From the NCBI GenBank assembly GCA_051362555.1, contig CM120640.1, positions 23,112,225 to 23,176,224 on the forward strand: 64,000 nt of DNA, given 5' to 3'. This document shows, piece after piece, positions 8,501 to 64,000 of this stretch. Numbering within the stretch: position 1 is the first letter of the stretch; each line of letters begins with the position of its first letter. Source of the DNA: Lingula anatina (lineage: Eukaryota > Animalia > Brachiopoda). The notes below the pieces were generated by a model, which had not been told where the DNA came from, did no database searches, and worked only from the letters and a program-made list of their open reading frames with translations. Made by a program: the position numbers and the translations under genes.

Positions 8501-9869
8501 ACTCACTCGTGTATTTTGTCTGGTCCAGCCTCAAGATCTGGGGTAGTTGCACTGAATAATAAGCAAGCATTCAATACAAACATGCATTACAATGGAACAT
8601 ACACTTTCAGTTCAAGCCAGGAGGATGTTCTAGCACAATCAACTACTTTTGTCACTTCTAAACTATAAGATGTACTCCACAAAGCAGCAAGAACATGGGG
8701 TAGCACTCCTTTTTAAACATTCAGAAATCATTATTCTATCCCATACTTGATAAAAATCACTGACAAAGCTCTAACAGATCATCTGGACAAGTACCTTTTA
8801 CTTTCTTGGCCACCAAGACTAAGATGTTAAACTATGAATAACAGTTTCTTTTTTCACAAGTTTACACCACAATTAAACACATTTTTCATTAAATTTTCAA
8901 CTCCTTTATAAATTACTGGAATATCAACAGAAAGGTAATTAATATCAAACATAATTCTTTCTTCAGGAAAAGGAAACCTCTAAATCAATATGCTGTTAAG
9001 TGTGATATTTTATGTTCTGATGTTGGTTAGTATGATTCAGAGAAGTAAAATCACAAATTCGTTCAAATTTATAAGCAGGTTCAACAATTAAAGGATTTAC
9101 ACATACATGTATAGAGTTAAGCAAATAAGCGGTTCACACTGCTATATCAAACAGTTTATTACCCCAGTTTAACACACTCTAGATAAGCACCTCAACCACA
9201 CAAAAAGCACTGATTTCTACAGACAATCCAATAATTCAACATCTTTAACAATGTTAAGCCAATATCTTCCAACTCCTCAATATTACAAAAGTAAGCTTTA
9301 CATAGAGTGGCACAATGCCTCCAGTTACTGAAAGCTCATCAGTAACTCTGCACTTCACATCATTAAAAGACTCATCTAGTAAAGGTGAAACTTTAAAACA
9401 TCTTGTACTTGTATAGATATTCCCAATTAAACCAAATTAGCCCAGATTATAATTCAGCTCCTCATTAACATTTTATAACGGGTGACTATTTCACCATGCC
9501 CCACCTCCACAACCTCCCAAATATATTGAATGTGTTGATCTATATCACACCAACTGTGTCCTCTTATCATGCCAATAGATCAGCTATACTGTAATAAACT
9601 ACATAAAAACAGCTCATCATCACCACAAACAAGTGAAGCACCACACACAGTCAAAACCCAAACAGATCCAAACCTTTTGTAGTTCTCGTCTGCAGCAGCT
9701 GTTAAGCCATTGCTTGTAGGAGATGCGCCAGTTCCCAGCATGTCAAACACATCCACCAGACAGCCAGTGTCATTGGAGGCAGGAGCAGCTGCAGGGGGCG
9801 CTGAAGACGAAAGGCCAAGCAAATCTGCTGATCCTCCTGATGCACCCTGAACAAGAAAATAATGCGTGG

Positions 9870-9902
<33 letters not shown>

Positions 9903-12900
9903 CAAAAAGTGCTATCTTATACTATCAACATGTAACCAAAAAATGCATAAAAAACATTACGTAGGTTGTTATTCAGAAAATGAAATAGCCAAACACAGAT
10001 GTGTAGCCCTTTTAATTTTCAATATTTTATTTAGATAATTCAAAATAATATTTTAAAATTAAAGTAACCAGATAAAGACAACATAATAAAATACACATAG
10101 GAAAAAAATTTAAATATCAACAATTTGGCCAGCAAGCTGTAGTATCATTGTCCACTCCTGAGGTTCTACATTAGGAGCCCACTAACCCATGGCTGATAAC
10201 TAACATATATACTAACCTGTGACTAGCAACTACCATATATACTAACCTCTGGCTGATAACTAGCATATATACTAACCTGTGGCTGGTAACTAGCATTAAC
10301 ACTAATCTCAGGCATTGGTTTGGATGCAACAGTGGGGGGTGAAGACTTGCCGCCAGCAGCATCTGGATCCTCTGCAGCTCCTGGCTTCTTCTTCTTCAAT
10401 TTGGCTAAAATGGAAGATTCTCTTTCCGGGAAGGGAGGCATCTCTTCTAATACTGTAGCCTGTGAAAAAGATTATATCTGAAGTATCTGCATTTTCTAAA
10501 AACCTAAGTGTAAAGATAAAATAAGATCCAAATATATTGAATTTATGCACATACATGTGTAAATTAAATTCTCAAAATATTCAGTCAACCATTTACTGTT
10601 GTTAATAACAAGAAATATCTTACTGCGGTGCATATATTCCTAGTCATAAATTTTCAGTTAAATGCATTTCTTTTTCTTTTTTGCACATACCAGTACATCT
10701 GTAGAAGTGACTGAAGTCAGCTGCAAATACTCTATAGCCCTCTGCTGAATTTCTACATCTGGGTTTCTTATATTATTGTCATTTCTTAGAATCTGAAAAA
10801 CAGTATGTGATACTTAAAATTATTGAACATCTATGTTCTACAGCATTTTCAAAAAGAAAAAAAATGATTATAGGAACATTTTCCTTCTGTAATATAGTTA
10901 GATCTAAACAGCTCTAATAAACCATTGTGCAACTGCTGATATTATGTTTTAAAAATCAACCAAAAACACTTGACCACACCATTACACTGACCTCTTGTAT
11001 TTGTGCCTTTATCTCTGGGAACAAATTGATAAATTTAACATAAGTTGAAAGCAGCAGTCCCCTAGTGCTTGGAATACACAGGTGGTACTTAGAATGGAGC
11101 AACTGGAACTGCACAATAGGACTGGAAAGAAAGTACAAATGGCTCTTCAATACCACATAAATCCCAATCTTTGTATCAACATTTTAAAAAAATTAGGTTT
11201 ATCTTTTCTTTAGATAAATGATAGGTTTTATTACTTATGTTTAACTCAAATAAAACCTATGTGTTAATTATAAAGAATTTTTCAAGACTAGAAAACTTAT
11301 ATCTACAATGGATACCCACCTTGACCTATGGTCTCCAGCTATTAGGTTACCAAATTCTCCTAATATGTATCCACCTACTTTCACCATGTTCTCATGACAT
11401 GCTGGTGCCTGGAGTGCCTGAAAAAAACATGACTATTTTCAGAATGTTGTTCCCAGTTAAAGGACAAAAACCTGGACATCTTCTGTAAAGTTATCCATGT
11501 TGGGTACAAGATAAAACATCAGGAGCTTTTATGTTATTAAGTAATCATTTTGCAAACATGCCTCAACTGTAACAAATACCATCAAATACTGACATAACAC
11601 ATAAAATGATGAACATTTAACACTGGCTACACAGCATCTTACTTCGAAGACAGTCTTGGCAGCATATCCCTGAACATCATCCCTGTTGATGACAATCTGT
11701 ATAACTCTGTACCAGACTTCCTCGCTGACGTAATCTCCAGCCAGGCGGATCAGATTCAGGATGGTGTCCACATACCATGTGTAGTCCACTGCATACTTCT
11801 CTGCCAGGATAGCCACTTTAAGGACCTGGTAGGGAGAATTGGATAAGTGAGAAAAGATAGTGCTTGCCACTTCTTCTAACTTGCTTATGCCCCTATGTAT
11901 AGTTATTGCACTAATATGCACTTATAATCTTTAACTTTAAAGCTTATGAAACTATATTTCACTTAAGTTTTAATAAAAATTTCATTTAAGACCTTCACAA
12001 AAGCTGCCTTGACTGTCAAATACTACATACAAATCACAGTGTTTAAAGCTCGGTTTAGTATCATTTGGTTTAAAGATGATACCCTTACCATTTCTTCTCT
12101 AATAGAATAATCTGCTGTTTCCAAATAAGTCAACATCTCTGCTACAATGTCTTCTGCATTGGTTCTGTCACACATGGCATACAACAGATCCACAGCCCTC
12201 TGACGAACACTCACGTCCCTCTCAGTCTGGAGATTTACAAATCAGAATTGGAGTTATTACTCATAATTCTTCATCATATTCTATTCATTTTGTTCATTTT
12301 TAGAAAAACAATTTCTGATATAATCCCAATTTATTTTTAAAACATTCAAATCACTTTTTACAGAATTACATACAAAACATTGTTTTAAGAAATGCAATTC
12401 ATCAATTTTTTAAAATCATTTATTGTATCATATTGTCAACCAACTGTAAATCAATTAATTTATATGACATTAAGTCTATAATATCTGTACCTTGAGTGCA
12501 TTGATCACAGTCTCCTGATGCTTTTTGACTGCTTCATGAGAGAATTCTGAGGTTGCCAGCAAGCACATACTTTCTAATGCAAGATACCTAGAAAACAGAC
12601 AATGTAGAGTAGGTGTGGCACTAGCAAATAACACAGAACACCATTCTCCTCCAGCAACGTAAAGAGCCTTCCCACATTTTAACACTTTATTTTAGACACT
12701 AAAACACAGACTAAGTTGAGTAGGAGTAGCACTGTTATATAACATAAAATGCCTTTCTCCTCCAGCAATAGTAAAGAGCATTCCCTTGTTTCAACACTTA
12801 ATTCACCACACTAAAATGTCCATAACTTTATTAAACCTAATCAATAATCATGGATGGCATTAAGCTGAACTGCTGAATCAACTAAATCAAGTCAATAAAA

Positions 12901-15742
12901 CAAGACTGAACATCTAATTATCACCTTCTTACCTTAGATTGGTTTCTCTATGTGACAAAAACTGTCCCAGTTGGTTACATGCCCTTACTAACAGATTAGG
13001 ATCACTGTCCATGTGGATTATCAGATTAATGGCTTCAAATAAGACTGCATTCTTGGCATTGGAGTGTTGCACTTTCTTTGACTTTGGTGGCTCCTGGGCT
13101 TTGTTCAGAATGGTTTCTAAACATTCAGTCAGCCTTGTGCGAACAGCCGGGTCCTCTGCAAATACAAATCCAATTAAATGAACAATAATGAATAAGTCTT
13201 ACTATGACTAAGTCATCCAGATTTTTAAAAAAATCTTACTAACCTATGGAAAGTATGTATAAAATTTTGTGTTCATATGCACAGGTGTGCTTGTAATGGA
13301 AATGGCACCAGATACCTTACTAGTATAAGTTACTTAGCTTTTCTCCTTCCTTACACTAATTTTTATACCCAGTGTACTTTTTCGGTAACTCAGACCATAC
13401 AGCACAATTGATTAAGAATGTGTTAACTAAGATTTTCACACTGGGAACACCAAAATGTACAAAATCTACAGATGTTCATATCACACAATATAAACACATC
13501 ACCTGGTGGAGGATAATTCTGTAGCAACCTCAGCAGTTTGACAGAGAGCCAAGGTGCTGGCACAAAGTAGTAGGTGTAATCCTGGAGGTCTGTGTAGGAA
13601 GAAGTGACAATTCTACTGAGTCTAGACACAGCCAGAGACACACAGCCTTTGTATTCCTCAGGACTCCTCTTCACCAGGGCCTCTATCAGACTGGCTGCTG
13701 CTGTTACCACACCCTTAAGGAAACAAATGTACATGTATATAGCAATTATATATTTAAATGGAGAACTGCTGTTAAGGCCTATCGTTTCTATGGGAGCAAA
13801 AGCACTTGCAACTTCATTATTTCACTACCTGATTCATTTTCATACAGAGCTTGTTCAATGATAATTGTATATGTTATTCTTCCTCAAATTATGATTTCTT
13901 GCTCAATAAGTTTAAGCCAACTTTATATGACAATAGCTTCACTAATTTAAAACGATTTAATATTTTAGGTGCACGTATATATAAATTATACAAACTACCT
14001 GGAGAAGGATATGTGATGCCATATATTTCAACTAGGAAAGCCATAGAATGTTGTGTTGGAGGAGGGGGGGGGGGGGGGGGGTAAAATAGGAAATATTTGT
14101 AATGTGGGCTTACCATGTGTTGATCATTGAGCAAGTGAATGACCCTGGAGGCCCACTCTCCAAGCTGAATCAGATCTGGGGCTGTTCTCAGCAGACGCAG
14201 CAGGCACAGGGCAGCACTCTGCTTTACAGAGTCTATGGTGTCACTGGAAGGAAAGCAATACTTAGTTTTACTCAAGTGTTTTGGTGTATTTATATTTCAA
14301 CTTGTGTAATACATACATACATACATACAAAGTGAGTCATGCAACGCATCTCCAAAAGTCTCATATACAAACATATTATGCTTGCATTTAAGTCTTCTAC
14401 CTACCATCACCTGCATTAATCAATTCAACCTGAACATTATGACATTTACAGCTATTATGAAAAAAGCTAGCAATCAACTGCAAAATTCATGACAGCCACC
14501 ACACTGGTTTTATAAATATATATCCTCTTCCTTTTTTCATTAGTTACTCACCGTCACCACTAAAAACTCTGCATTAATATTTTTCAAAAGCCAATTTCCT
14601 TTGTACTTAGTATCAATCTACAGATGAAAGCCACCTTACCCTGATACCAAAAGCTTTGGAATATCCCTATTAAAGGCTTCTGCCATGTCTCTGCTGCCTA
14701 TGTTGGCAATACACTGTAGGGCCAGGCACACATGCACAGGGTTACGGCTGACGATGTCATTCTTAATGGACTGGACTACCAGCTTCATCAGGTCACTGCT
14801 GGCACTGACCAGAACTGAGATGAACAAGTAACCCTAGAAAAAAAATAAATAAACAATACAAGCTTTAAAAAACTCAATTTATTTCTTTTTTATTCATTCT
14901 AAGTCTTACTTTTAGAGTTCTAAATAGGGTGTGTATGTATCTAAAATGTCAATTTTCTACCAAATTCTCTTACCATCATAATCACTTCAATAAAACCTAT
15001 TTTAAGCATCTATGACATCTTTATCTATACTACAGCAATGTACGCTCAACAAAATATCATTTCAAATTTCATTTCCTTTACCAAGACACGAAGGTTACAC
15101 CTCAAACTTAAAACAGATGGATTGCCATTCTCTGGATTACTTTAATTTATACTGAGAGGAAGTAAGTAGGTTAACTAAGCTGAACTTTGTCAGGATTCCA
15201 CTTACAATCTGTTTTTCTGTGTATTTGTTAGAACTGAGCAGGTTGACTGCCTCCATGTGGCCAAAGTCAATGTCATGGCCCAGCAGGAATATAAACAGCA
15301 GCTTACACACATACTTCTTCTTCTGGTAACCATCTAGGGTTTTATCACCTAGAAACAATACACATTACACTTAAAATTACATTTAAATTATAAATATTAT
15401 ATTTATAAATATACGTGTAAAGCTTGGATGACATAAGAGTTTACACAAAGATCAATGATGCCACAACAGCAGTAACATGTTTCGTAAGATTAAAACAGCA
15501 AATGGCAATGTGTGTCTCAATCTATTTCCATGATGTAAAGTAATGACAGAGTTCCTACCATGAGATCTAACCATGCATATATCAAAACAATTGTGTGTGT
15601 GAATGTCAACCCAATATAACATGTACAACTGTAAATGGCATCATGACTCATGGTTCATTTGTACATCATCAACGCATTTTGTCCTCAACGATCCCTTGCT
15701 GATAAAACAGTGTCTTGTGTATTTTTATTGGACTGTGTCCTG

Positions 15743-33757: not shown

Positions 33758-52775
<19,018 letters not shown>

Positions 52776-54491: not shown

Positions 54492-55278
54492 TTATTTCTC
54501 CAAAACCGCAACATCATCAATGAACTTCTGTGGCGTCCCCGCTCCACTCCCGGTATTGTAATACTTTCTTCCAGTATTCAGCCTGTCCTCTCACGTCTGC
54601 AGGAACGGCTGCAGGAATATTGGACAGAACCAGACGCGCTGCCAGGCCGGAGTAGAGGGGTTTAAGGAGGTCTGACCACTGGGCGGCAGGCCAGTCTATG
54701 CCGAACTTTTGTTTGATGCCAGCATGTTTTGCGTTAAGTCCAGGGTGACTGCCAGTGTCTTGGGTGGCTTGAAACCCAAGCAGATCAACCTATACAGATA
54801 AAGGAAAACCCAGTAACGATCGGGATATCTATAAAATGCCAGTTCTGAAGCACTTATTTTCCCCTCAAGTCAGTTTCGTTTTATGCAAAAAAAAAAAAAA
54901 AACTATCATTATCCCCGCTGACTCAAATAATACCCGCAGTTGCTATGTCAAGTTTCATAACTCTTTTTTTCAGAAAAAAATAGCGTGAATATCAATAAGA
55001 CTGGCGGCAACAAATTGACGCAGCGGTAGCAGCTAACGCCATGGATATCAATACAAAAACAACGCCAAATCAATACGTGCCATATGTTAGCTATGACTCA
55101 CCTGCCAAATTCCGCCGTAGTAATTAGGTCGGTAGGTGTTTCGGTCAGTTCCGTCTTTGGACTCTACGTAAGCTATTCTACGAAGGAGTTTCTTATCATC
55201 AGGAAATAAACTCAAATTATGAATCTGTTTAACCACGCTTTCCACGACATGTGAGCCGGATCCTCTGACGTCTGTCAT
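54492..55278 (-). CDS. Stand-alone lysozyme-fold-like protein (~157 aa if repaired), two exons, with a 1-nt frameshift near 54565-54567 (pseudogene or assembly error)
   Basis: Exon 55102-55278 encodes MTDVRGSGSHVVESVVKQIHNLSLFPDDKKLLRRIAYVESKDGTDRNTYRPNYYGGIWQ. Exon 54492-54789 encodes VDLLGFQATQDTGSHPGL...KPLYSGLAARLVLSNI...GQAEYWKK/YYNTGSGAGTPQKFIDDVAVLEK*. By manual count 65/98 residues are identical to the paralogue exon at 63449-63749, with the same acceptor position before VD. Confidence 0.8.
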
Positions 55279-55366
55279 CTTATTGTTGATGTATTTTTGA
55301 TAACGGGTGCTGATTATCACGCAGATCTGTCCTCGGTGGTACTAACTTCCAGTCCGTATTCCACTC

Positions 55367-55547
55367 TTTATAATGCTGAATACGTTTTACGTTGATTTAG
55401 TAATGACTTCTAAGAACACTGAACTTAGTCAAGATTCAGTTTATAGCTATATTTGGCGAAAAAAACCACCCAAAATTCCAATATTTCGCTTGCATATGAA
55501 AATCCCGGAAAAAATCCCCTTTTCTATTTGTGATTAATGGATTCCCC
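55367..55547 (-). promoter_or_regulatory. TATA box plus cluster of kappa-B-like motifs upstream of the lysozyme-like gene
   Basis: Minus-strand TATAAA at 55367-55372, plus GGGATTTTC (55498-55506), GGGGATTTTTTCC (55507-55519) and GGGGAATCCA (55538-55547). Confidence 0.5.
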
Positions 55548-58504
55548 ACACCAAACCTCCATACCAACATACTACTAAACCTGGTACAATATGTAATATC
55601 AACTAATGCAGCAGGCAAAAAAAGAATAAAAATAGAAATATTAAAAATAAAAACATGCTGTTGCATATTTTCATGGCATATAACTTATTTAATCTTATTT
55701 TATTCAACTGTGGCAGATTAAAAACATAAATCAGTGCGTTTATTATGGTCACTCAAATGTCAGACATCTTGAAGATATACTATAATACTATAATTTTATG
55801 AAATATTCCAATAGAATATCAACGCTTTGCTTAGAAAAAGGTCAAACTCTTCCCAGGGATATTTAAAGAAGTAATAACTGACAGCCTTTAAAAGTGCTGC
55901 ACACGTCAACTACAGGGACTCAGGTGCACGCGTGACCTGTCACATTTGACTTTGTCTTAAAACACATACATACATTCTCAGGACCATCAAACACTCCAAA
56001 ATTTCTATTGTAATGCCATAATGTTGACGCAGCGTCCCTTGTGCGACCGGGATTTAAATTTCTTTTCTATTTTTTATTTTCATTTCAGGCAGCATTGTAC
56101 AAAAAATTATACGCAAAGTACGTGGCATGAATATAACTGCTATTATCTTTGCAAGCAAGGTCCAACAATGCGGCGGCCTTTTTTACTATGCCTTTTTTAT
56201 CCCCGCTGTGTTGGGCAGGTAGAGTTACAAGGATGCATCAAACTGACGCGGATAATCTGCACCGGAATGTGCACTGAAAGAATTTTAACACAAGTTGGAA
56301 ATCTACTTTCATTTCAGTTCAAGTGTCATAGTGGTGATTTCATGGCCGAATTACATTTTAGAAACTTCATATTTTCATTCAAATTATTTCAAAGTTTGGT
56401 AGAATTATGTCAGGGTCTGAGTTATAACCATTTACCTGAATCTCTTAATATATGGTACTCATTTTGTGAACCCTATATTACATTTGCCAGGTGCGCCGCA
56501 CGACGAAATCGTATTCGATTTTCCATACTTTTTTTTTTTTTTTTTTTTTTGGAGGGGGGGGCTGGAGGGGTATCGTAAGTAGCTACGGGCTATGGCGAGT
56601 ACATTTACATGACATGAGGGTACCGTGCCATTTCTCGGGCAGGGTCAAGTGAAGAAAAATCTTTTTTATTTTGAAAAGTGATTTAAAGGAGCCCTTTCGG
56701 TCTCAGTGCAGTTGCCGCACGCCTTTCGTGCGGCTTCCATGAATATCGATGCGTTGTTGTAACCCCTACGCTATTTTCATCCATGTGGTCAAGTTAAGTA
56801 AAATCACAATTTCAAATTTATACAAGTGAACTACAATAAGTTTTAGACATCTTTACCCTCGTCATGCCCTCTTAACCACAAAAGAAGGGAAGGAAATAGA
56901 CCAACAACAGGTCCAACCATTTTCATGATCACTGCAAGTCCACCAAATATGGCCATACGTACGGGATCTGTGCAAAGTCAAAGTACGAGGCAAAGTCAAA
57001 GTACGAGCTACGGACTACGGCCCACGGGCTTACGATTTCAAAGGTTTATCATAAGTTTTAGCCTGACAAAATCGTAGAGGCTACGGAGGCCGTCTGCCTC
57101 CGCACAGACGCCGCACGAAAAGGGATTTACGGGAAGATACATGAAGGCAGTATACGAAAATGTACAGACATAGCATGACAAAGATATCACGGTAAACAAT
57201 CCGGTGATCAATTTGTAAGGGAAGATTTCAGTTGCAGGATATAACTGTGGCTTCATCTCCTGCTTAAAGTGAAGTCAACCTCAGTTAAATTGCTTCAAAT
57301 GTATCTCTAGTAAATGCACCTTACTGAGGGTCAAAATATCTTATTATAGGAATCCCTTTTGATGTATTTTATGGGCTTCGTCCTGTATATAGGAAATAGA
57401 GAGAAATGTTTGTAGTCATTTAGATAGCCTGATTGCCAGTGGCGTTTTAGGAAACTCCATAACACAGACAGAGAAATAAATATAGGGGTCAATGAGACAG
57501 TAAACCAGGGAGTTAGTGAACAGACATGCTTATCTCTACAAAGCGAACTAAGACGTTATGATACATGTAGAAGCACGAAACCCAATATTTCATACCCAGC
57601 GAAAACGAAAATGATTTGAATCATTTGATACTCTAACTTAAAACTTTGGATTTCCTCATATCTCTTTCTTGAGACTTTGTTACGCGATGAATTTATACTT
57701 TAATAGTAACAATTTATCAATCTCCCACCTGCCTGATGTATATAGCTCAAAATCAGTTAGCATGATAAGTGTTGTAACACCTATTCTTAGACTACACACA
57801 GCTGATCAAAACAGCTGTGCAACAATGATGTTACACGAGTTCGGTATCTCAAGAATAAATGCAGACGGCCACGTTGCACACAGAAGCATATTAATTACTT
57901 AAGATCTACATGTACTTAAAGATGCCGGAATAAGCCAACGTTTTAAAAAAGATCGAGGAAAGAGAGATTTCCTTTTCATCAATACTGGATGTTGCTTTGA
58001 ATAAGCAATACCAACACGCTGAATTAGCACTTTCCAGGTAAACATTTGCCAGGATGATATGTGGTTGCGTAATCGAGGTCTTTTTCCATTAATTATGAGT
58101 GTGGAAACCACACAACGATATGCGTTGCCTGGAAAAGGAAAGCAAGATCAAGTTCTGGGAGTTATTTTAAGTTCACGCAGTTCTGAAATTCCTCAGTGTC
58201 AAATAAATCAAATCGGAACAAACAATTACGAGCGCCAAAAATTTTTAAATTATATCCAATTTCATGGCCCTAAACACTCCGAAATTACATGTTATTTCGT
58301 AATATTGATTTTTCTGTAATATTACAAGCAGCATTGCACAAAAGATTCTCCAATGCGCAGCAACATAAAAAGATTATACTCAATGCATAAAATGGAGACA
58401 TATAACTATCAGACGAGCTTCTATTAGATTCGTTTTTAATAAACACACACACACACCAAAACATTTAAGCTATGACCTTAGATTGAAATAACCAGTCCAG
58501 CCAA

Positions 58505-59265
58505 CATTGTAAATTGTAAGAAAAGCTTTCGACAGAGTTAACAGGTTTTATTTATGGTATAAATTATATAAGTTAGGAATTTGCGGAAACTTCATGAATT
58601 CCCTTCATAGAAACCCGAAACGATGTGTTAAGGTAAATAACTATACAACAACTTTCCTTGACATAGATACCGGAGTGAAACAGGGGTGTTTGCTGTCACG
58701 TTTACTCTTTGACATGTTCATTAATGATCTGGTGCATGATCTTAAAGCTCTGGGCAAAGGCATTCATGTTTGCTCCTTTGTTCGAACTAGAACTCAACAT
58801 TGAGTCCTAAATGCGATGACGTTGTGCTTTTAGCTAAGAACGAAAGGACTTGCAGTCAATGCTTGATGTAGTGCACAAGTGGTATTACAAAGGGCAGTTG
58901 ACTCTGAATGAGAACAAAATCCAGTTCATTTCAGGACACCTAGAGTGCCTAAGACTTATTATGTATTTACATGTGGTAACTTAAAGTAAACATTGTCGAA
59001 AAACATATTTTGATATGTGGTATTTTGAGCATTTTGATGCGAGTATATCACGAATAGCTATGTCTGTAAGTAGAGCTCTAGGTCTTCTGATTGCAAAATG
59101 CAAAGCAAATGGGAGCATCTTTATGTTTGCGTTACGAAATTATACAATCCACTTGTAGCTCCAGTGTTAGAGTATGGTTCTGTTTTATGGGGATTCCAGG
59201 GTTTTAATCAAATCCATGCTATTTTTAACCGAGCTTGTAGGCATTTCGTTGGTGTGCTCTGAACG
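58505..59265 (+). mobile_element. Decayed non-LTR retrotransposon (LINE, CR1/L2-group-like) reverse transcriptase fragment
   Basis: Broken reading frames give KKAFDRVNR, LWYKLYKLGI, TGVKQGCLLSRLLFDMFINDL, DDVVLLA and LQSMLD...W, i.e. RT motifs with frameshifts and stops. Confidence 0.85.
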
Positions 59266-60763
59266 ATATTTTGGACAGAAGTTTGTAACTTTCATTTTAA
59301 GATTCTGGGCCATGCACCAAGATTTGTCTACCACAAACTGAGGTCACCCCTCGAGATTGAACACCCGGCAACGCAAAACATGAAGAATCGTACCTTGGCA
59401 GCCTCAACTTATTGGTATTCAGTGCACAAGCAGCTTCATAGGGTCTTTGTTTACGAAATAGGCGTTTTTGTCTACCTTTGCTTTGTTGATATTTTCACAT
59501 TGTTTTGACTAAAGGGCTGAAACTAAGGGCTGAAACGTCACCAAGGTAATGAGGGTTGTACAAACACGGTGTTGCGTGTTTTGTTTCACATTCCAGTCGA
59601 CAATCCGGACAGCCCGGACGGCTATAGTCAAACCACCAATATTTATTATCACATGAATTATGTATCTCAAGAATAAATGCAGATATCCACGTTTCACAAA
59701 GGTGTTTTCTACATATGCTTCCGAATACTGGAATAAACACACTACTGGAAAAGTATTTTATTCAAAACACAGATCAACAGACGAAAATAACACTTTCCAG
59801 GTAAATACCCGCTGAGATAAAATGTTTTTGCGTAATTTAGGGTCTTCTCTATGAGAAAATAATATGAAAACCACAAAATGATAGGTACTTTGTGTCTCCA
59901 AATTGAAAACAAAGTCGAATGCTGGAATTTATTCTTCGTCATGCAACTCAGAAACAAACAATATTTCAGCGCCCATTGAATCCAATCGGGACAGATTTTC
60001 TCCCCACATACAGGGCATTTTCTTCGTTGCGCAATGACAAAGGCTTAAGACACTTGCCTCTCCCATAATTTCCCTAATCTAAATAAATTGTATCACCCTG
60101 AAAAAGGTACATATACGTATCCCATGGTTACCAGTTAATTCAATTTTAATAAAGCGTGGATTTCCGGAACACGAAAGTTGAATATTTCTGTCAGAGTAGA
60201 GAGGATATTTCCTTTAATATATTTATTTATGTTCAATGCGCGCAACTACTTAAATCACAATGAAAAATATGAAATATAAAAATATATCAATGTATAAAAT
60301 AGATATCACAAGTCATTAATGCACAGCAATCAGTTAATCAATTACCTAAATCTGGACATATTACATAAAATATTTCACCTATGGAAGAGATATCTTATAT
60401 GTAAATGCGATGTGTTAAGGCTGGCATATGTACAATTGCAAAAAAAAAAAAGGATTAAAGCAACGTGTTATCAAATATATACACAAGTATAAACTTAAGT
60501 AAGCTTCACAAAAATTTTCTTGTCCTGAATTTCGTCCAGTACATACCTACTCAGCGTTAATTTTCTATTACTTAAAAATTCTATTGAACAATAATGTCAC
60601 ACGCGTACGTTCAAAAACCTGGGTGATTTAACGCACAGAAGCCATAAAATTAATCAGTCTTCTGCAATGTCTGAAATGATATTGATTTTTCTTTTCAGCT
60701 CGGATTTTCAACAGCTAAGAAGTAAGGCTTTTTCATGGAGTAGTCTCATTCTGCATGCTCTGT

Positions 60764-63749
60764 TTAAGAATACACCATCATGCAGAGCAACACTGCCAAG
60801 GCAATGTTTTTCAAACATCCAGATACGGTTCCACTTCCTCCGAAATTTTCCTGACCGACATACATGGTTATCTTGAAAGTGTTGGTGTCGCTTGTGCCTG
60901 TTCCATAGATGGAAGTATAAAGTGAAACGGTGGAGTTGGCGGTGGAGTTAGAAACATCACGTCTGACGCGAGAGAGGGAGGGCGGAGGTGGAATGTAGAA
61001 ATCGTAAAAACCCTTGCTTGTGTCGCTGTCGAGTTTATGATCATAAAAAGCAGGGCTTGGATTGGTTGTGGTATAAGACGCATACATGCTTGTCTGCCCA
61101 GCGGTCATTGCAACCTGAAATAAATTTGGAATTTTTTTAAACATATCCATTATGTTAGTGTGCAATTGAATTATTGAGATGTCACAGCTATTTATCATGC
61201 AAACAACAAAAGAGCTACAAACAAAAACGTCCATCGCATACCATAGGATTATAACAAAATGTCAACTGCAATTACTATTGTAAAACAGCTTTACCTTAAT
61301 AGTTGCCCCTGACTCCACAGATGCTGAAAACGTAAAGTAGGCAGCTTGGTCTTTCTTCAGTGTACCTGTTATTTCTGCTTCGGCATTCACCTCTGTTGAA
61401 ACTATAAATTCAAAATATAGATCGAGTTAATTACAGTATTGCTTTTACTTTCGTTTACTTTTCAATAAAATGTTTTTTAAAACTTTATTTTACTATTGAC
61501 TTATGGGATAGTCGAGGTGGAGAACACGATAAAATATTAACCTCTGGGAGAAATCTTACGTAGTAAATTTGAGATATGGCAGAAATCTATCACACTGAAT
61601 ATGCTTTGAGTAACCATATAAAACAGCAATGTATACAAGGACACACACATTGTGTACGTTTAAATAATACTCATATAATCTAGAACAAATGAATGATTTT
61701 AGCAAAATACTATTCTGACCATTGCCATAAACTGAATGTATCACACAAAAAGTATCTGAATAAAACGATGCGCACCATCGTCCAGCTATTTTTTCTATTC
61801 TCCGTTGTGACTTTTGTCGAAATAAAAACTAAATAAAAAGGTGAACTCTCGATCACATTTATAAGTCATCATGAGTTATCAACCAATATTTACTTCTTTT
61901 ACAATCGCAAGTCAGCTAAGGCATCGATATGCTCACTTGATCTGTGAACCTGCGTTCTGAAACAACCTGCATCTATTGGCAACAAGTGGAGATAAACGGA
62001 GTGCTATCGTGTGTAATGACACTCACTTTATTTGTCCCACGATTGATGGAAAAAATTAAAGTGATAATAACTCTTCGTTTCAGCCAAAAAATGAATTTTC
62101 CTGGAGTAAACAACAATTTTCCCATACTTACCAATGGTTAATGAATCCATTTTTACATTCAAAGTTAGTCCCTGGTTTTTTTCTAAAAAGTTTGTTTTTT
62201 TTGTTAAAATCTCTTAAGAGATTTTAACAGAGTATAGCCATCAATGGAGGTCATGTGGTCTAAAGACAAGCTCAGATATCAGAATAATAGCTATAACAGC
62301 CGTTTTTGTGGGAAAACAGTATATATTATATTTTTATGAGTCACTCACAATGTTTTTATTGTGAAATACAGATTTCATACGAAGAGTTATTATCCCTTTA
62401 ATGATACTGGGTCGCTTTCTTGTCAATTCTTTCAAAAAGGAAAAAAAGGAAACGGGCTTACCCTTGCAGGTGCGACCTTCTATCTCGGACTTAAAACTGC
62501 TAAAGTCTGTGAAATCAGTCAAGTCAAAAACATATTTTGAGTCTGGATTAGATGCAATGCTCTGAAGCTCGCTATAATCAATACCGCTTGTAACTCCTAC
62601 GGCAAACACGATGATGTCATTCTCGTGTACACGTTCGGCATACTGAATAGTGAGCGATTCGTCGTTGGATTGGCCGTCTGTGATGACTATACCTATCTGT
62701 GGAGTTCCCGTCACGTTCTGGCGTCCCGAACTTTTCATAACGTTGACAAGAGATGAAAGTCCCAAATGTGTTGCTGTACCGCCGCCTATGTAGTTAACAT
62801 TACCAATACGTGGAATAACTGTTGCGTTGCTGGTGTAGTCGTTGAGATCGAACTCGATTATCGCCGCGTTGCTGTACTTAATCAAACCAACACGGATCTT
62901 GTCCAAACCCACTTCCATTGAGTTCACGACATTCTGGACAAAAGTGAGCATCTGTTGAAAGTTACTGGCACCTACGCTGCCAGAGGAGTCCAGCACAAAT
63001 ACCAGATCAGCGCGTAGAATGTCGCACTCTAAAATGAAAATAATAATAGCAAATATACATACATATTGATAAAGAAAGAAGAATCGTTAACATCTCACTG
63101 AATTCCAAATCTGTTAGATCCAGAGGTATATGTTAGAACTTTATATGGCAAATAAATAAATAAATTTCCTTTTATATATATATATGAGTGAAATCACTAG
63201 TCTCAATCTCCATATCGAGAGGGACTAAAATTCAAACAAAGTAAATAACAAGCTATCCCTATCATCAACAGAAAGTACTCCAATTGACGGATTTCAATAC
63301 ACTTCATTTTCAATTTTTCGTTCCCAACCCATAACAAATAATGTAAAAACTCATTCCTTAGGTTCATTTTTGAATTTCGATTTACTGTCTTCTGCCTTTA
63401 ACAGCCTGCTTGCATAATTTTCTTTTCGTTTAACAGTGTATGACTTACTTGATTGTTTCTCTAATTCTGTAACGTCGTCTATAAATTTCTGTTCTGTCCC
63501 CGCTCCACTGTTGCTGTTATAATACCTTTTCCAGTACGTTGCCTGGCCACTAATGTCGCGGGGGATAACTTGGTTTATGTTGGAAAGGAACAATCTTGCA
63601 GCGAGACCAGAATACAGCGGCTTCTGGAGGTCCGACCATGAGACCGTTGTCCAGTCGATGTTAAATTTTGTCCTTATCGCTTCAAATTTTGATGTTAGAC
63701 CCGGGTGGCTAGATGTGTCCTGTGTCGATTCGAAGCCGATTCTATCAAC
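60764..63749 (-). CDS. Lysozyme-fold-like domain + von Willebrand factor A domain + beta-rich domain + furin site + GPI-type C-terminus; 5' exon(s) lie beyond the window
   Basis: Exon 63449-63749: VDRIGFESTQD...YWKRYYNSNSGAGTEQKFIDDVTELEKQS. Exon 62462-63028: CDILRADLVFVLDSSGSVG...IVITDGQSND...EGRTCK, a vWA domain with the DxSxS MIDAS motif. Exon 61295-61401. Exon 60764-61114: ...SRVRRDV...FGGSGTVSGCLKNIALAVLLCMMVYS*. Phases join. Confidence 0.88.
62060..62397. mobile_element. ~340-bp TTAA-flanked MITE, copy 2 (intron of the vWA gene)
   Basis: TIR AGTGATAATAACTCTTCGT / ACGAAGAGTTATTATCCCT with TTAA TSD. Homologous to 31971-32307. Confidence 0.88.
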
Positions 63750-64000
63750 CTGAAAATGAAGATGAATTTACATCCACCGTCAGTGTGCAAGATATCCAGG
63801 GAATTGCAAGCCGTTTTATTAACATGAAAATTGCAAAATAACTGTACTTTCGTTACAGATTGGAAAATTGAATTTCATCAATATGAAAATGAACACCAAT
63901 TATAAATATTTCTGACAAAAGGCTTCATCAGTATTATTCAATAACGATTGCTATTTGTCAACCAGACCAAGTAAGGGATGTACTCTATCAGTCAGAGAGG

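Follow-up and report, generated by a model that had tools for sequence, protein, structure and literature searches.

Organization of the gene pair

The window, i.e. the whole stretch of 64,000 nucleotides of Lingula anatina DNA that was analysed, carries on its minus strand two tandem paralogues with introns, here called gene A and gene B. They have in common one unnamed domain of about 155 amino acids and are flanked by animal genes (adaptin and DCDC1-like). The likeness between their domain exons is, judging by the alignment, not due to chance (BLASTP E 3e-38), and the intron position is identical in both (in gene A, according to the acceptor at 63749 and the L. anatina protein P0317). Both genes are transcribed and spliced, with RNA reads from poly(A)/oligo-dT RNA crossing GT-AG introns. 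An earlier note, made from the DNA letters, had described two adjacent minus-strand paralogues with introns, and this was borne out, as was the presence of the motifs RIAYVES, GGIWQ and LYSGLAARL. Its figure of 65/98 identical residues over the shared exon was obtained again on recounting, but it becomes 48/90 when the window is taken as written.

The domain exon of gene A (63449..63749, minus strand) encodes the C-terminal ~100 amino acids of the domain, beginning at the V-D of a Q-V-D motif and keeping an intact W-K-x-Y-Y-N tail. It shows an RNA depth of about 20+20 (run X18), is 100% identical to P0317 over 99 amino acids and matches the phage profile PHROG 3108 (E 2.6e-10). The upstream exon or exons, with the signal peptide and the candidate catalytic Glu, lie past position 64000, outside the window. 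The vWA exon (62462..63028, minus strand) is colinear with P0317 and matches PF00092 (E 4.3e-42), which confirms the vWA domain proposed earlier; its model matches the collagen VI vWA (Z 27.2) in a search that covered the vWA and beta domains together and whose match list was filled by the vWA. It carries DSSGS and later T/D residues, which we take to be a MIDAS-type motif. An unassigned all-beta domain starts in the exon at 61295..61401, joined to the last exon by a splice joint (61112-61293) present in 3/3 RNA runs. The last exon (60764..61114, both on the minus strand) contains the rest of the beta domain, an RVRR sequence predicted to be a furin-type site, a hydrophobic C-terminal tail and the stop codon. 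The tail has a hydropathy of 2.21, forms a helix in the model (513-527) and would act as a GPI-type signal or anchor. P0317 is 96% identical to gene A (423/441 over the part in the window) and presents the layout signal peptide, domain, vWA, beta domain and hydrophobic tail. The surface-tethered form proposed in the earlier note is thus supported via P0317, but it is not fully readable from the window, where the 5' exon is missing.

Gene B has two coding exons on the minus strand. Exon 1 (55102..55278) is leaderless, with a 5' UTR contiguous to about 55490; it contains the codon of the candidate catalytic Glu39 (55162-55164) and, at its end, Gly56 and Gln59. No hydrophobic leader was found for this gene, the sole upstream ATG (55495) being past the RNA cover. 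A signal-peptide exon further upstream was considered and rejected, since there is no upstream RNA joint and the RNA ends near 55490. Exon 2 (54492..54789) carries the Asp61 codon (54784-54786), LYSGLAARL, the YWK..YYN tail and the stop, and the intron joint (54787-55100) is crossed by 46 reads in X18 and 29 in X19. Gene B encodes no cysteines, as had been claimed for the domain, and its RNA together with P0317 agrees with the proposal of one leaderless and one anchored vWA form.

The window copy of gene B presents an extra base at about 54565 (54565..54568, minus strand) that puts YYN..GAGT..KFIDDV and the last helix out of frame, the in-frame product ending in KKVLQY..EVH and a stop. Consequently, what had been regarded as the complete copy is, as written, not complete in its tail. 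The base is missing in 27/32 RNA reads of X18 and 28/31 of X19. A DNA contig of X2 covers the site without gaps, although the X2 DNA may have the same source as the window sequence, and the X1 contigs break there. A plain assembly error was rejected because the X2 contig carries the extra base; it is a segregating frameshift allele found in one DNA haplotype, and not evidently an assembly slip. Among the 16 coding variants displayed for gene B, 12 are synonymous versus 4 non-synonymous.

Predicted fold and conserved residues

No Pfam or NCBIfam family covers the domain. Neither the domain exons of the window nor P0008, a close homologue that is 64-67% identical to them, matched Pfam at E<=5, and the PDB sequence search gave no meaningful match and no g-type lysozyme chain at E<=10. 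In the P0008 model (pLDDT 97.1), whose helices are the same as those of the P0317 model, the best VIA match was MltE (Z 9.1, rmsd 3.6, 126 aligned); identity to the superfamily enzymes matched is at most 20%, and Z values of 8-9 barely exceed what this tool usually gives as background (7-8). The best 50 matches (Z 9.1 to 4.3), classed partly by title, are all glycan-cleaving or lysozyme-fold proteins. There is a tie between the top rows, among them a GH23 chitinase (Z 8.3) and GH73 glucosaminidases. Foldseek against the PDB gave no match at E<=0.001, and lytic transglycosylases made up 7 of its first 10 rows. Regarding these comparisons, the domain is predicted to adopt the lysozyme-superfamily fold, in agreement with the earlier note.

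The conserved Glu that had been placed at a helix end is found there: Glu38 of the P0008 model closes helix 30-39, and the residue is kept in 322/331 aligned rows. The loop between Glu and Gln shows no beta-strands by DSSP and conserves Gly (324/335) and Gln (295/335), whereas the superfamily beta-hairpin is called invariant in PMC2976769. In gene B numbering, Glu39, Gly56, Gln59, Asp61, Trp132 and Tyr136 are conserved, the first four matching by sequence spacing the goose-type constellation of Glu73, Gly92, Gln95 and Asp97. PMC2976769 gives goose lysozyme Gly92-Gln95-Asp97, with spacing equal to the G-x-x-Q-V-D of the domain, and tabulates a Glu-Asp distance near 8.6 A for GH23; a placozoan g-type lysozyme has RES..GLMQVD (PMC12855814). 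The Asp is kept in 111/112 endolysin-type rows and in 183/215 other rows.

Glu39, with which the central helix ends, could donate a proton to the glycosidic oxygen of the beta-1,4 bond that links MurNAc to GlcNAc. Asp61 could position the attacking water like goose-lysozyme Asp97, or it may only be a helix N-cap, as it stands immediately before a helix. The earlier note had likened the domain to lytic transglycosylases; since the Q-V-D Asp is conserved with the goose Asp97 spacing, hydrolase activity has at least the same likelihood. By this analogy hydrolysis is given slightly better than an even chance, and 1,6-anhydro transglycosylation is a possible, less probable chemistry.

Distribution in eukaryotes and phages

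The family is large (2,958 clusters at 50% identity, E<=0.001), with homologues in sponge, annelid, molluscs, echinoderms, a tardigrade and an amoeba, the carriers including Halichondria and Willaertia. Many homologues are stand-alone secreted domains. Among 64 long homologues, 21 are fused to vWA and six to CBM14, four of the latter also having vWA, and sponge and tardigrade proteins share the same multi-domain architecture. Members of the family are at present named, for instance, 'vWA domain protein' or 'collagen-like'. In a tree of a 44-row subset (LG+G4) the eukaryotes were united in a single clade by 0% of the 200 bootstrap replicates, such a clade still being compatible (p-AU 0.31). Endolysin-type members formed a separate branch (support 100/100), the group labels of unnamed proteins being guesses. 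An ancient acquisition, as suggested earlier, fits the age of the architecture (sponge to bilaterians), but the tree fixes no direction of transfer and shows no single eukaryote clade.

Phage and bacterial homologues with the tail motif given in the earlier note do exist. The PHROG 3108 profile matches P0008 over positions 29-154 of 160 (E 1.6e-19) and the window exon over positions 78-154 (E 2.6e-10); its function is unannotated, and its Glu, Gln and Trp are invariant. Between phage and animal domains, identity is as high as 50-53%.

In phage PMBT28 the gene order is domain protein (AUZ95556), holin and Rz-like, and in phiKO2 it is the 2-TM gp53, the domain protein gp54, i-spanin gp55 and o-spanin gp57, both spanins being given in the supplement of PMC6139136. 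Neither genome has an annotated endolysin, none of the 51 other PMBT28 and phiKO2 ORFs scanned matched a lysis PHROG, and an endolysin is named neither in PMC12042878 (text and supplement) nor in PMC4294664 (text). This suggests that PHROG 3108 fills the endolysin slot in both phages. Moreover, small TM-bearing ORFs are more frequent next to viral copies than at a distance (27/62 versus 68/296, p 0.0014), a named lysis PHROG being matched by only 3/62 neighbours; no TM neighbour was seen among those checked in Shewanella 1/44, Vibrio 1.049.O and B8b. The domain also caps phrog_3883 internal virion proteins (2/27 scanned), and in L007 it comes after phrog_418. In phages, the family would have two uses, as endolysin and, on virion proteins that are ejected, as the domain that opens the cell wall.

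Proposed function and alternative explanations

The reading judged probable is that this unnamed domain of predicted lysozyme fold cuts bacterial peptidoglycan, with gene A predicted to expose it at the cell surface, and gene B to supply it in free, leaderless form. Gene A, with its signal peptide, enzyme, vWA, beta domain with the furin-type site and anchor, would sit on epithelial or gut surfaces; its product may be shed, and its vWA may bind matrix or microbes. Gene B could work inside cells or once released, and would be so little needed that a frameshift allele can segregate. The idea of the pair as a special two-part 'system' is not upheld: the family occurs widely, and gene B seems to have arisen by local duplication. 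More broadly, this is likely a new lysozyme family common to phages and animals. A more specific version, given an even chance, is a further animal lysozyme type beside the c-, g- and i-types, found from sponges to echinoderms as well as in amoebae. It would derive from the domain with which phage ejection proteins open the cell wall, and it includes the anchored vWA form of sponges and bilaterians; the missing endolysin of PMBT28-like phages and phiKO2-like telomere phages would belong to the same family.

Chitin is the substrate that competes with peptidoglycan. The animal domain could have switched to chitin or chito-oligomers like the GH23 chitinase Ra-ChiC, remodelling or binding a chitinous matrix (shell, chaetae, peritrophic membrane), with the phage copies remaining peptidoglycan enzymes. 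The CBM14 fusions speak for it, as do the tie of Ra-ChiC with the best VIA matches and the chitopentaose bound in the matched MltE entry; besides, chitin synthases are expanded in Lingula, and its shell contains vWA proteins (PMC4595640). Nevertheless, CBM14 is missing from both window genes, and the supplement of that paper shows 8 distinct VWA shell-protein rows (12 are counted there), of which not one matches gene A in length. An amoeba and a sponge are among the carriers, and the closest prokaryotic relatives are in peptidoglycan-lysis contexts. This switch is considered rather unlikely.

Still less credence is given to a mainly non-catalytic module for glycan binding or matrix (pattern recognition, adhesion) in vWA extracellular proteins. 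The frequent vWA fusion, the loss of the Glu in 9 domain rows, including the vWA-fused P0148_d1 and P0225, and the tolerated frameshift allele of gene B would fit it. On the other hand, the Glu is present in 201/210 filled rows of the eukaryote-profile set and in both window genes, and many homologues are secreted domains that stand alone. Finally, the high identity to phage domains and the frameshifted window copy might suggest that the genes are contaminating bacterial or phage DNA, or a recent insertion that is dead. This is refuted by the splicing of their introns in poly(A)/oligo-dT RNA, the animal neighbours and the sponge and tardigrade proteins of the same architecture, and is hardly conceivable.

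If the domain is active as a peptidoglycan-cutting enzyme, this large family would be a new component of antibacterial defence and digestion in invertebrates; an unannotated phage family would gain a function, and the missing endolysin of phages of Klebsiella and Salmonella would be found. It would also be a small cysteine-free enzyme, easy to assay. No description of the family was found in the open full-text papers searched, and a paper of 2026 about the origins of animal lysozymes treats the c-, g- and i-types, its introduction and section 10 making no mention of this domain family (PMC12855814).

Comparison with known lysozyme families

The earlier note saw no match to c-, g- or i-type lysozymes. 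This stands at the level of Pfam, but the g-type resemblance around the Glu and the G-x-x-Q-V-D was missed. For the c- and i-type (GH22) there is no Pfam match, and gene B without cysteines contrasts with their disulfide-rich domain. Other superfamily members at Z 5.1 and 6.4 share the fold only, with no sequence match.

The phage tail lysozyme PF18013, GH73, the GH184 muramidases and the chitinase Ra-ChiC have the same superfamily core (Z 8.2-8.8), with 11-17% identity to the domain and no family-level match for the window proteins; PF18013 matches 2/96 members (best E 6.8e-5). Family-1 lytic transglycosylases (MltE, MltC, Slt70, phiKZ gp144) are the best structural neighbours (Z 8.0-9.1). 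They present Glu-Ser/Thr, G-x-x-Q and Y-N in the same order and have the same phage uses, as endolysin and virion entry enzyme. However, identity is 11-13%, and the domain has a conserved Asp two residues past the Gln. The SLT family (PF01464) has no matches in the window proteins and weak ones in 5/96 members, the best (E 0.0094) below the Pfam cut-off.

Goose-type lysozyme (GH23) shares the E-S at the helix end and the G-x-x-Q-V-D with the same Gly/Gln/Asp spacing, salmon 4g9s aligning with the P0008 model over 111 residues (Z 6.8, rmsd 3.5). A prokaryote-to-early-animal transfer has been proposed for it (PMC12855814, section 10). It differs in its A-Y-N where the domain has a C-terminal Y-W-K-x-Y-Y-N, and the structural identity is 16%; the domain stands apart also by its vWA and CBM14 fusions, its anchored forms and its mostly phage prokaryotic relatives. 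With PHROG 3108 the homology is full-length; its stand-alone endolysin-type members form their own branch, whereas the eukaryote copies group with the virion-protein type, a closeness that is biased because the virion-type rows come from a eukaryote-seeded profile.

Gene models, transcription and gene B alleles

The two minus-strand paralogues proposed in the earlier note, genes A and B, were confirmed in the window. The gene A exons (63749-63449, 63028-62462, 61401-61295 and 61114-60764) form a single open frame of 441 aa; at least one of its splice joints was seen directly in RNA reads, and the remaining boundaries were set by colinearity with P0317, a nearly identical Lingula anatina protein. 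The gene B coding exons run from the ATG at 55278 to 55102 and from 54789 to 54492. Gene B had been taken for the complete copy, which does not hold, as an extra base at about 54565 leaves the YYN..GAGT tail out of frame. The shared-exon identity of 65/98 is recovered only if this base is skipped, and is 48/90 as written.

The extra base is missing from 27/32 and 28/31 RNA reads. One DNA contig set (X2) carries it in a contig that is gap-free across the site, and the contigs of the other (X1) break there. The most fitting reading is a loss-of-function allele that segregates. Of 16 distinct coding differences among the gene B variants listed, 12 are synonymous. Genes A and B differ from each other at 21, 17 and 51 first, second and third codon positions.

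RNA covers gene A in three runs from three studies and gene B in two of these, and the two runs that keep strand information are consistent with transcripts from the minus strand. Splicing of the gene B intron is seen in 46 reads of one run and 29 of another. The description of gene B as leaderless was borne out, since RNA cover stops near 55490 with no upstream joint and the sole ATG upstream of its start is at 55495.

The pair is flanked by an adaptin (AP-2 alpha-like) gene (exons at about 9580-14300, minus strand) and a DCDC1-like gene (exons at 43735-49210, plus strand). A reverse-transcriptase remnant (58513-58800; RVT_1, E 4.9e-7) lies between genes A and B. A gene A intron holds a short MITE-like element (62056-62401) of very high copy number (summed contig depth about 1e6), with a loose end at each border.

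Full-length gene A

When longer proteins were searched for, P0317 came up, which NCBI lists under the label of vWA domain protein. It matches gene A over 423/441 residues of the window part and is 100% identical over the 99-aa exon. From a hydrophobic leader it runs through the domain, with the VES Glu intact, then vWA and an RVRR-bearing all-beta domain, to a tail that is again hydrophobic. The domain, vWA and a C-terminal hydrophobic segment also occur together in Halichondria (sponge) and Hypsibius (tardigrade) proteins, so this architecture likely predates bilaterians.

Regarding the 18 differences between gene A and P0317, 14 sit in the vWA exon (62462-63028), in two loops adjoining MIDAS-type residues, and none in the 99-aa enzyme exon. 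RNA reads also vary from the window at 62648-62663. These loops are a possible diversifying ligand-binding surface. After vWA, several homologues carry an all-beta domain of about 120 aa, often with a furin-type loop; the gene A copy (60764-61401) matches no Pfam family.

Family, spread and phage context

The domain has no sequence match in Pfam, NCBIfam or PDB, and full-text search of the published literature returned no description of the family. It is matched by phrog_3108, a family of unassigned function, which upholds the phage homologues supposed earlier. A profile search gave 2,958 matches at E<=0.001 among 1.84 billion representatives. Named carriers among 30 clusters looked up were Owenia, Acanthaster, Amphiura, Tegillarca, Haliotis, Potamilus, Hypsibius and the amoeba Willaertia. 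Among 64 longer homologues from 150 matches listed, vWA was found in 21 and CBM14 in 6. In prokaryotes, a search of 185,579 genomes with one pattern confirmed no more than 357 stretches, a sparseness that fits prophages. The domain is a real, expressed, unnamed lysozyme-superfamily family common to phages and invertebrates.

Copies binned as bacterial, which share 44-47% identity with the animal type and have N-termini resembling signal peptides, occur at two Deltaproteobacteria MAG loci (L103, L104); they may be enzymes that bacteria secrete, or eukaryote contigs that ended up in these bins. In the uncultured 636-kb jumbo phage LR756504.1, three places match the domain (top identity 42%).

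In phiKO2 (gp53-57, locus L001 4082-5607), the domain gene has a two-TM gene on one side and the spanins on the other, the latter as curated in the supplement of PMC6139136. In PMBT28 (locus L002 3902-5352), PSA28 and VLCpiS6a it is followed by a holin and an Rz-like gene. Neither the phiKO2 nor the PMBT28 genome has an annotated endolysin, and a scan of 51 further ORFs there gave no match to a lysis PHROG. Counted over 41 viral clusters of the stand-alone type, small ORFs with TM segments are more frequent beside the domain gene than farther away (27/62 adjacent versus 68/296 distant, p 0.0014). A named lysis family occurs in only 3/62 neighbours of viral copies, and three phage isolates had no TM neighbour among those checked. 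PHROG 3108 is likely the unannotated endolysin of phiKO2-like phage-plasmids, which matched 172 Klebsiella plasmid records, and of PMBT28-like phages. The domain also terminates long proteins, two of which match the internal virion protein phrog_3883. The Vibrio phage yong1 homologue (L013 2833-3330) carries the annotation 'RNA polymerase subunit alpha', apparently in error.

In the unrooted trees, the one of 100 rows being built by a quick method, eukaryote domains cluster with the virion-type and apart from the endolysin-type (100/100). A single eukaryote clade was not recovered, nor rejected (p-AU 0.31). Phage-to-eukaryote transfer is plausible.

Predicted structure and function

As gene B has an intron and a frameshift, its homologue P0008 (64-67% identical) was folded instead with 96 sequences (pLDDT 97.1). 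The lysozyme-like fold claimed earlier is backed by VIA-align, where MltE scored highest (Z 9.1) and MltC, a GH73 enzyme, phiKZ gp144, MltF, fungal muramidases, FlgJ and Ra-ChiC lay within 1 Z, all at 11-17% identity. The g-, i- and c-type lysozymes gave 6.8, 6.4 and 5.1. However, Foldseek found nothing significant in the PDB; its TM of 0.90 was to an uncharacterised phage protein of 1,021 aa.

Glu39 lies at a helix end in the model and is retained in 322/331 alignment rows; Gly56, Gln59, Asp61, Trp132 and Tyr136 are also conserved. Phages place peptidoglycan enzymes in two spots, the endolysin slot and the ejection protein. Mainly because phage copies occupy both, the domain is probably a peptidoglycan-cleaving enzyme. 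Action on chitin instead, in a fold whose close neighbours include Ra-ChiC, seems unlikely, and a non-catalytic binding module would be more improbable still.

Peptidoglycan cleavage by this predicted enzyme can be compared with goose lysozyme, whose Glu73, Gly92, Gln95 and Asp97 are described in PMC2976769, with Asp97 positioning a water. Between Glu and Gln, no further acid is common to both sequence sets. The stretch between them has no strand assigned in the model, and Asp61 may serve to cap a helix, both of which count against a goose-lysozyme-like role of Asp61. Nevertheless, Gly92, Gln95 and Asp97 of that source have the same spacing as Gly56, Gln59 and Asp61, which follow Glu39. Although tests of sequence membership place the domain in neither g-type lysozyme nor SLT, in our view it would work like one or the other.
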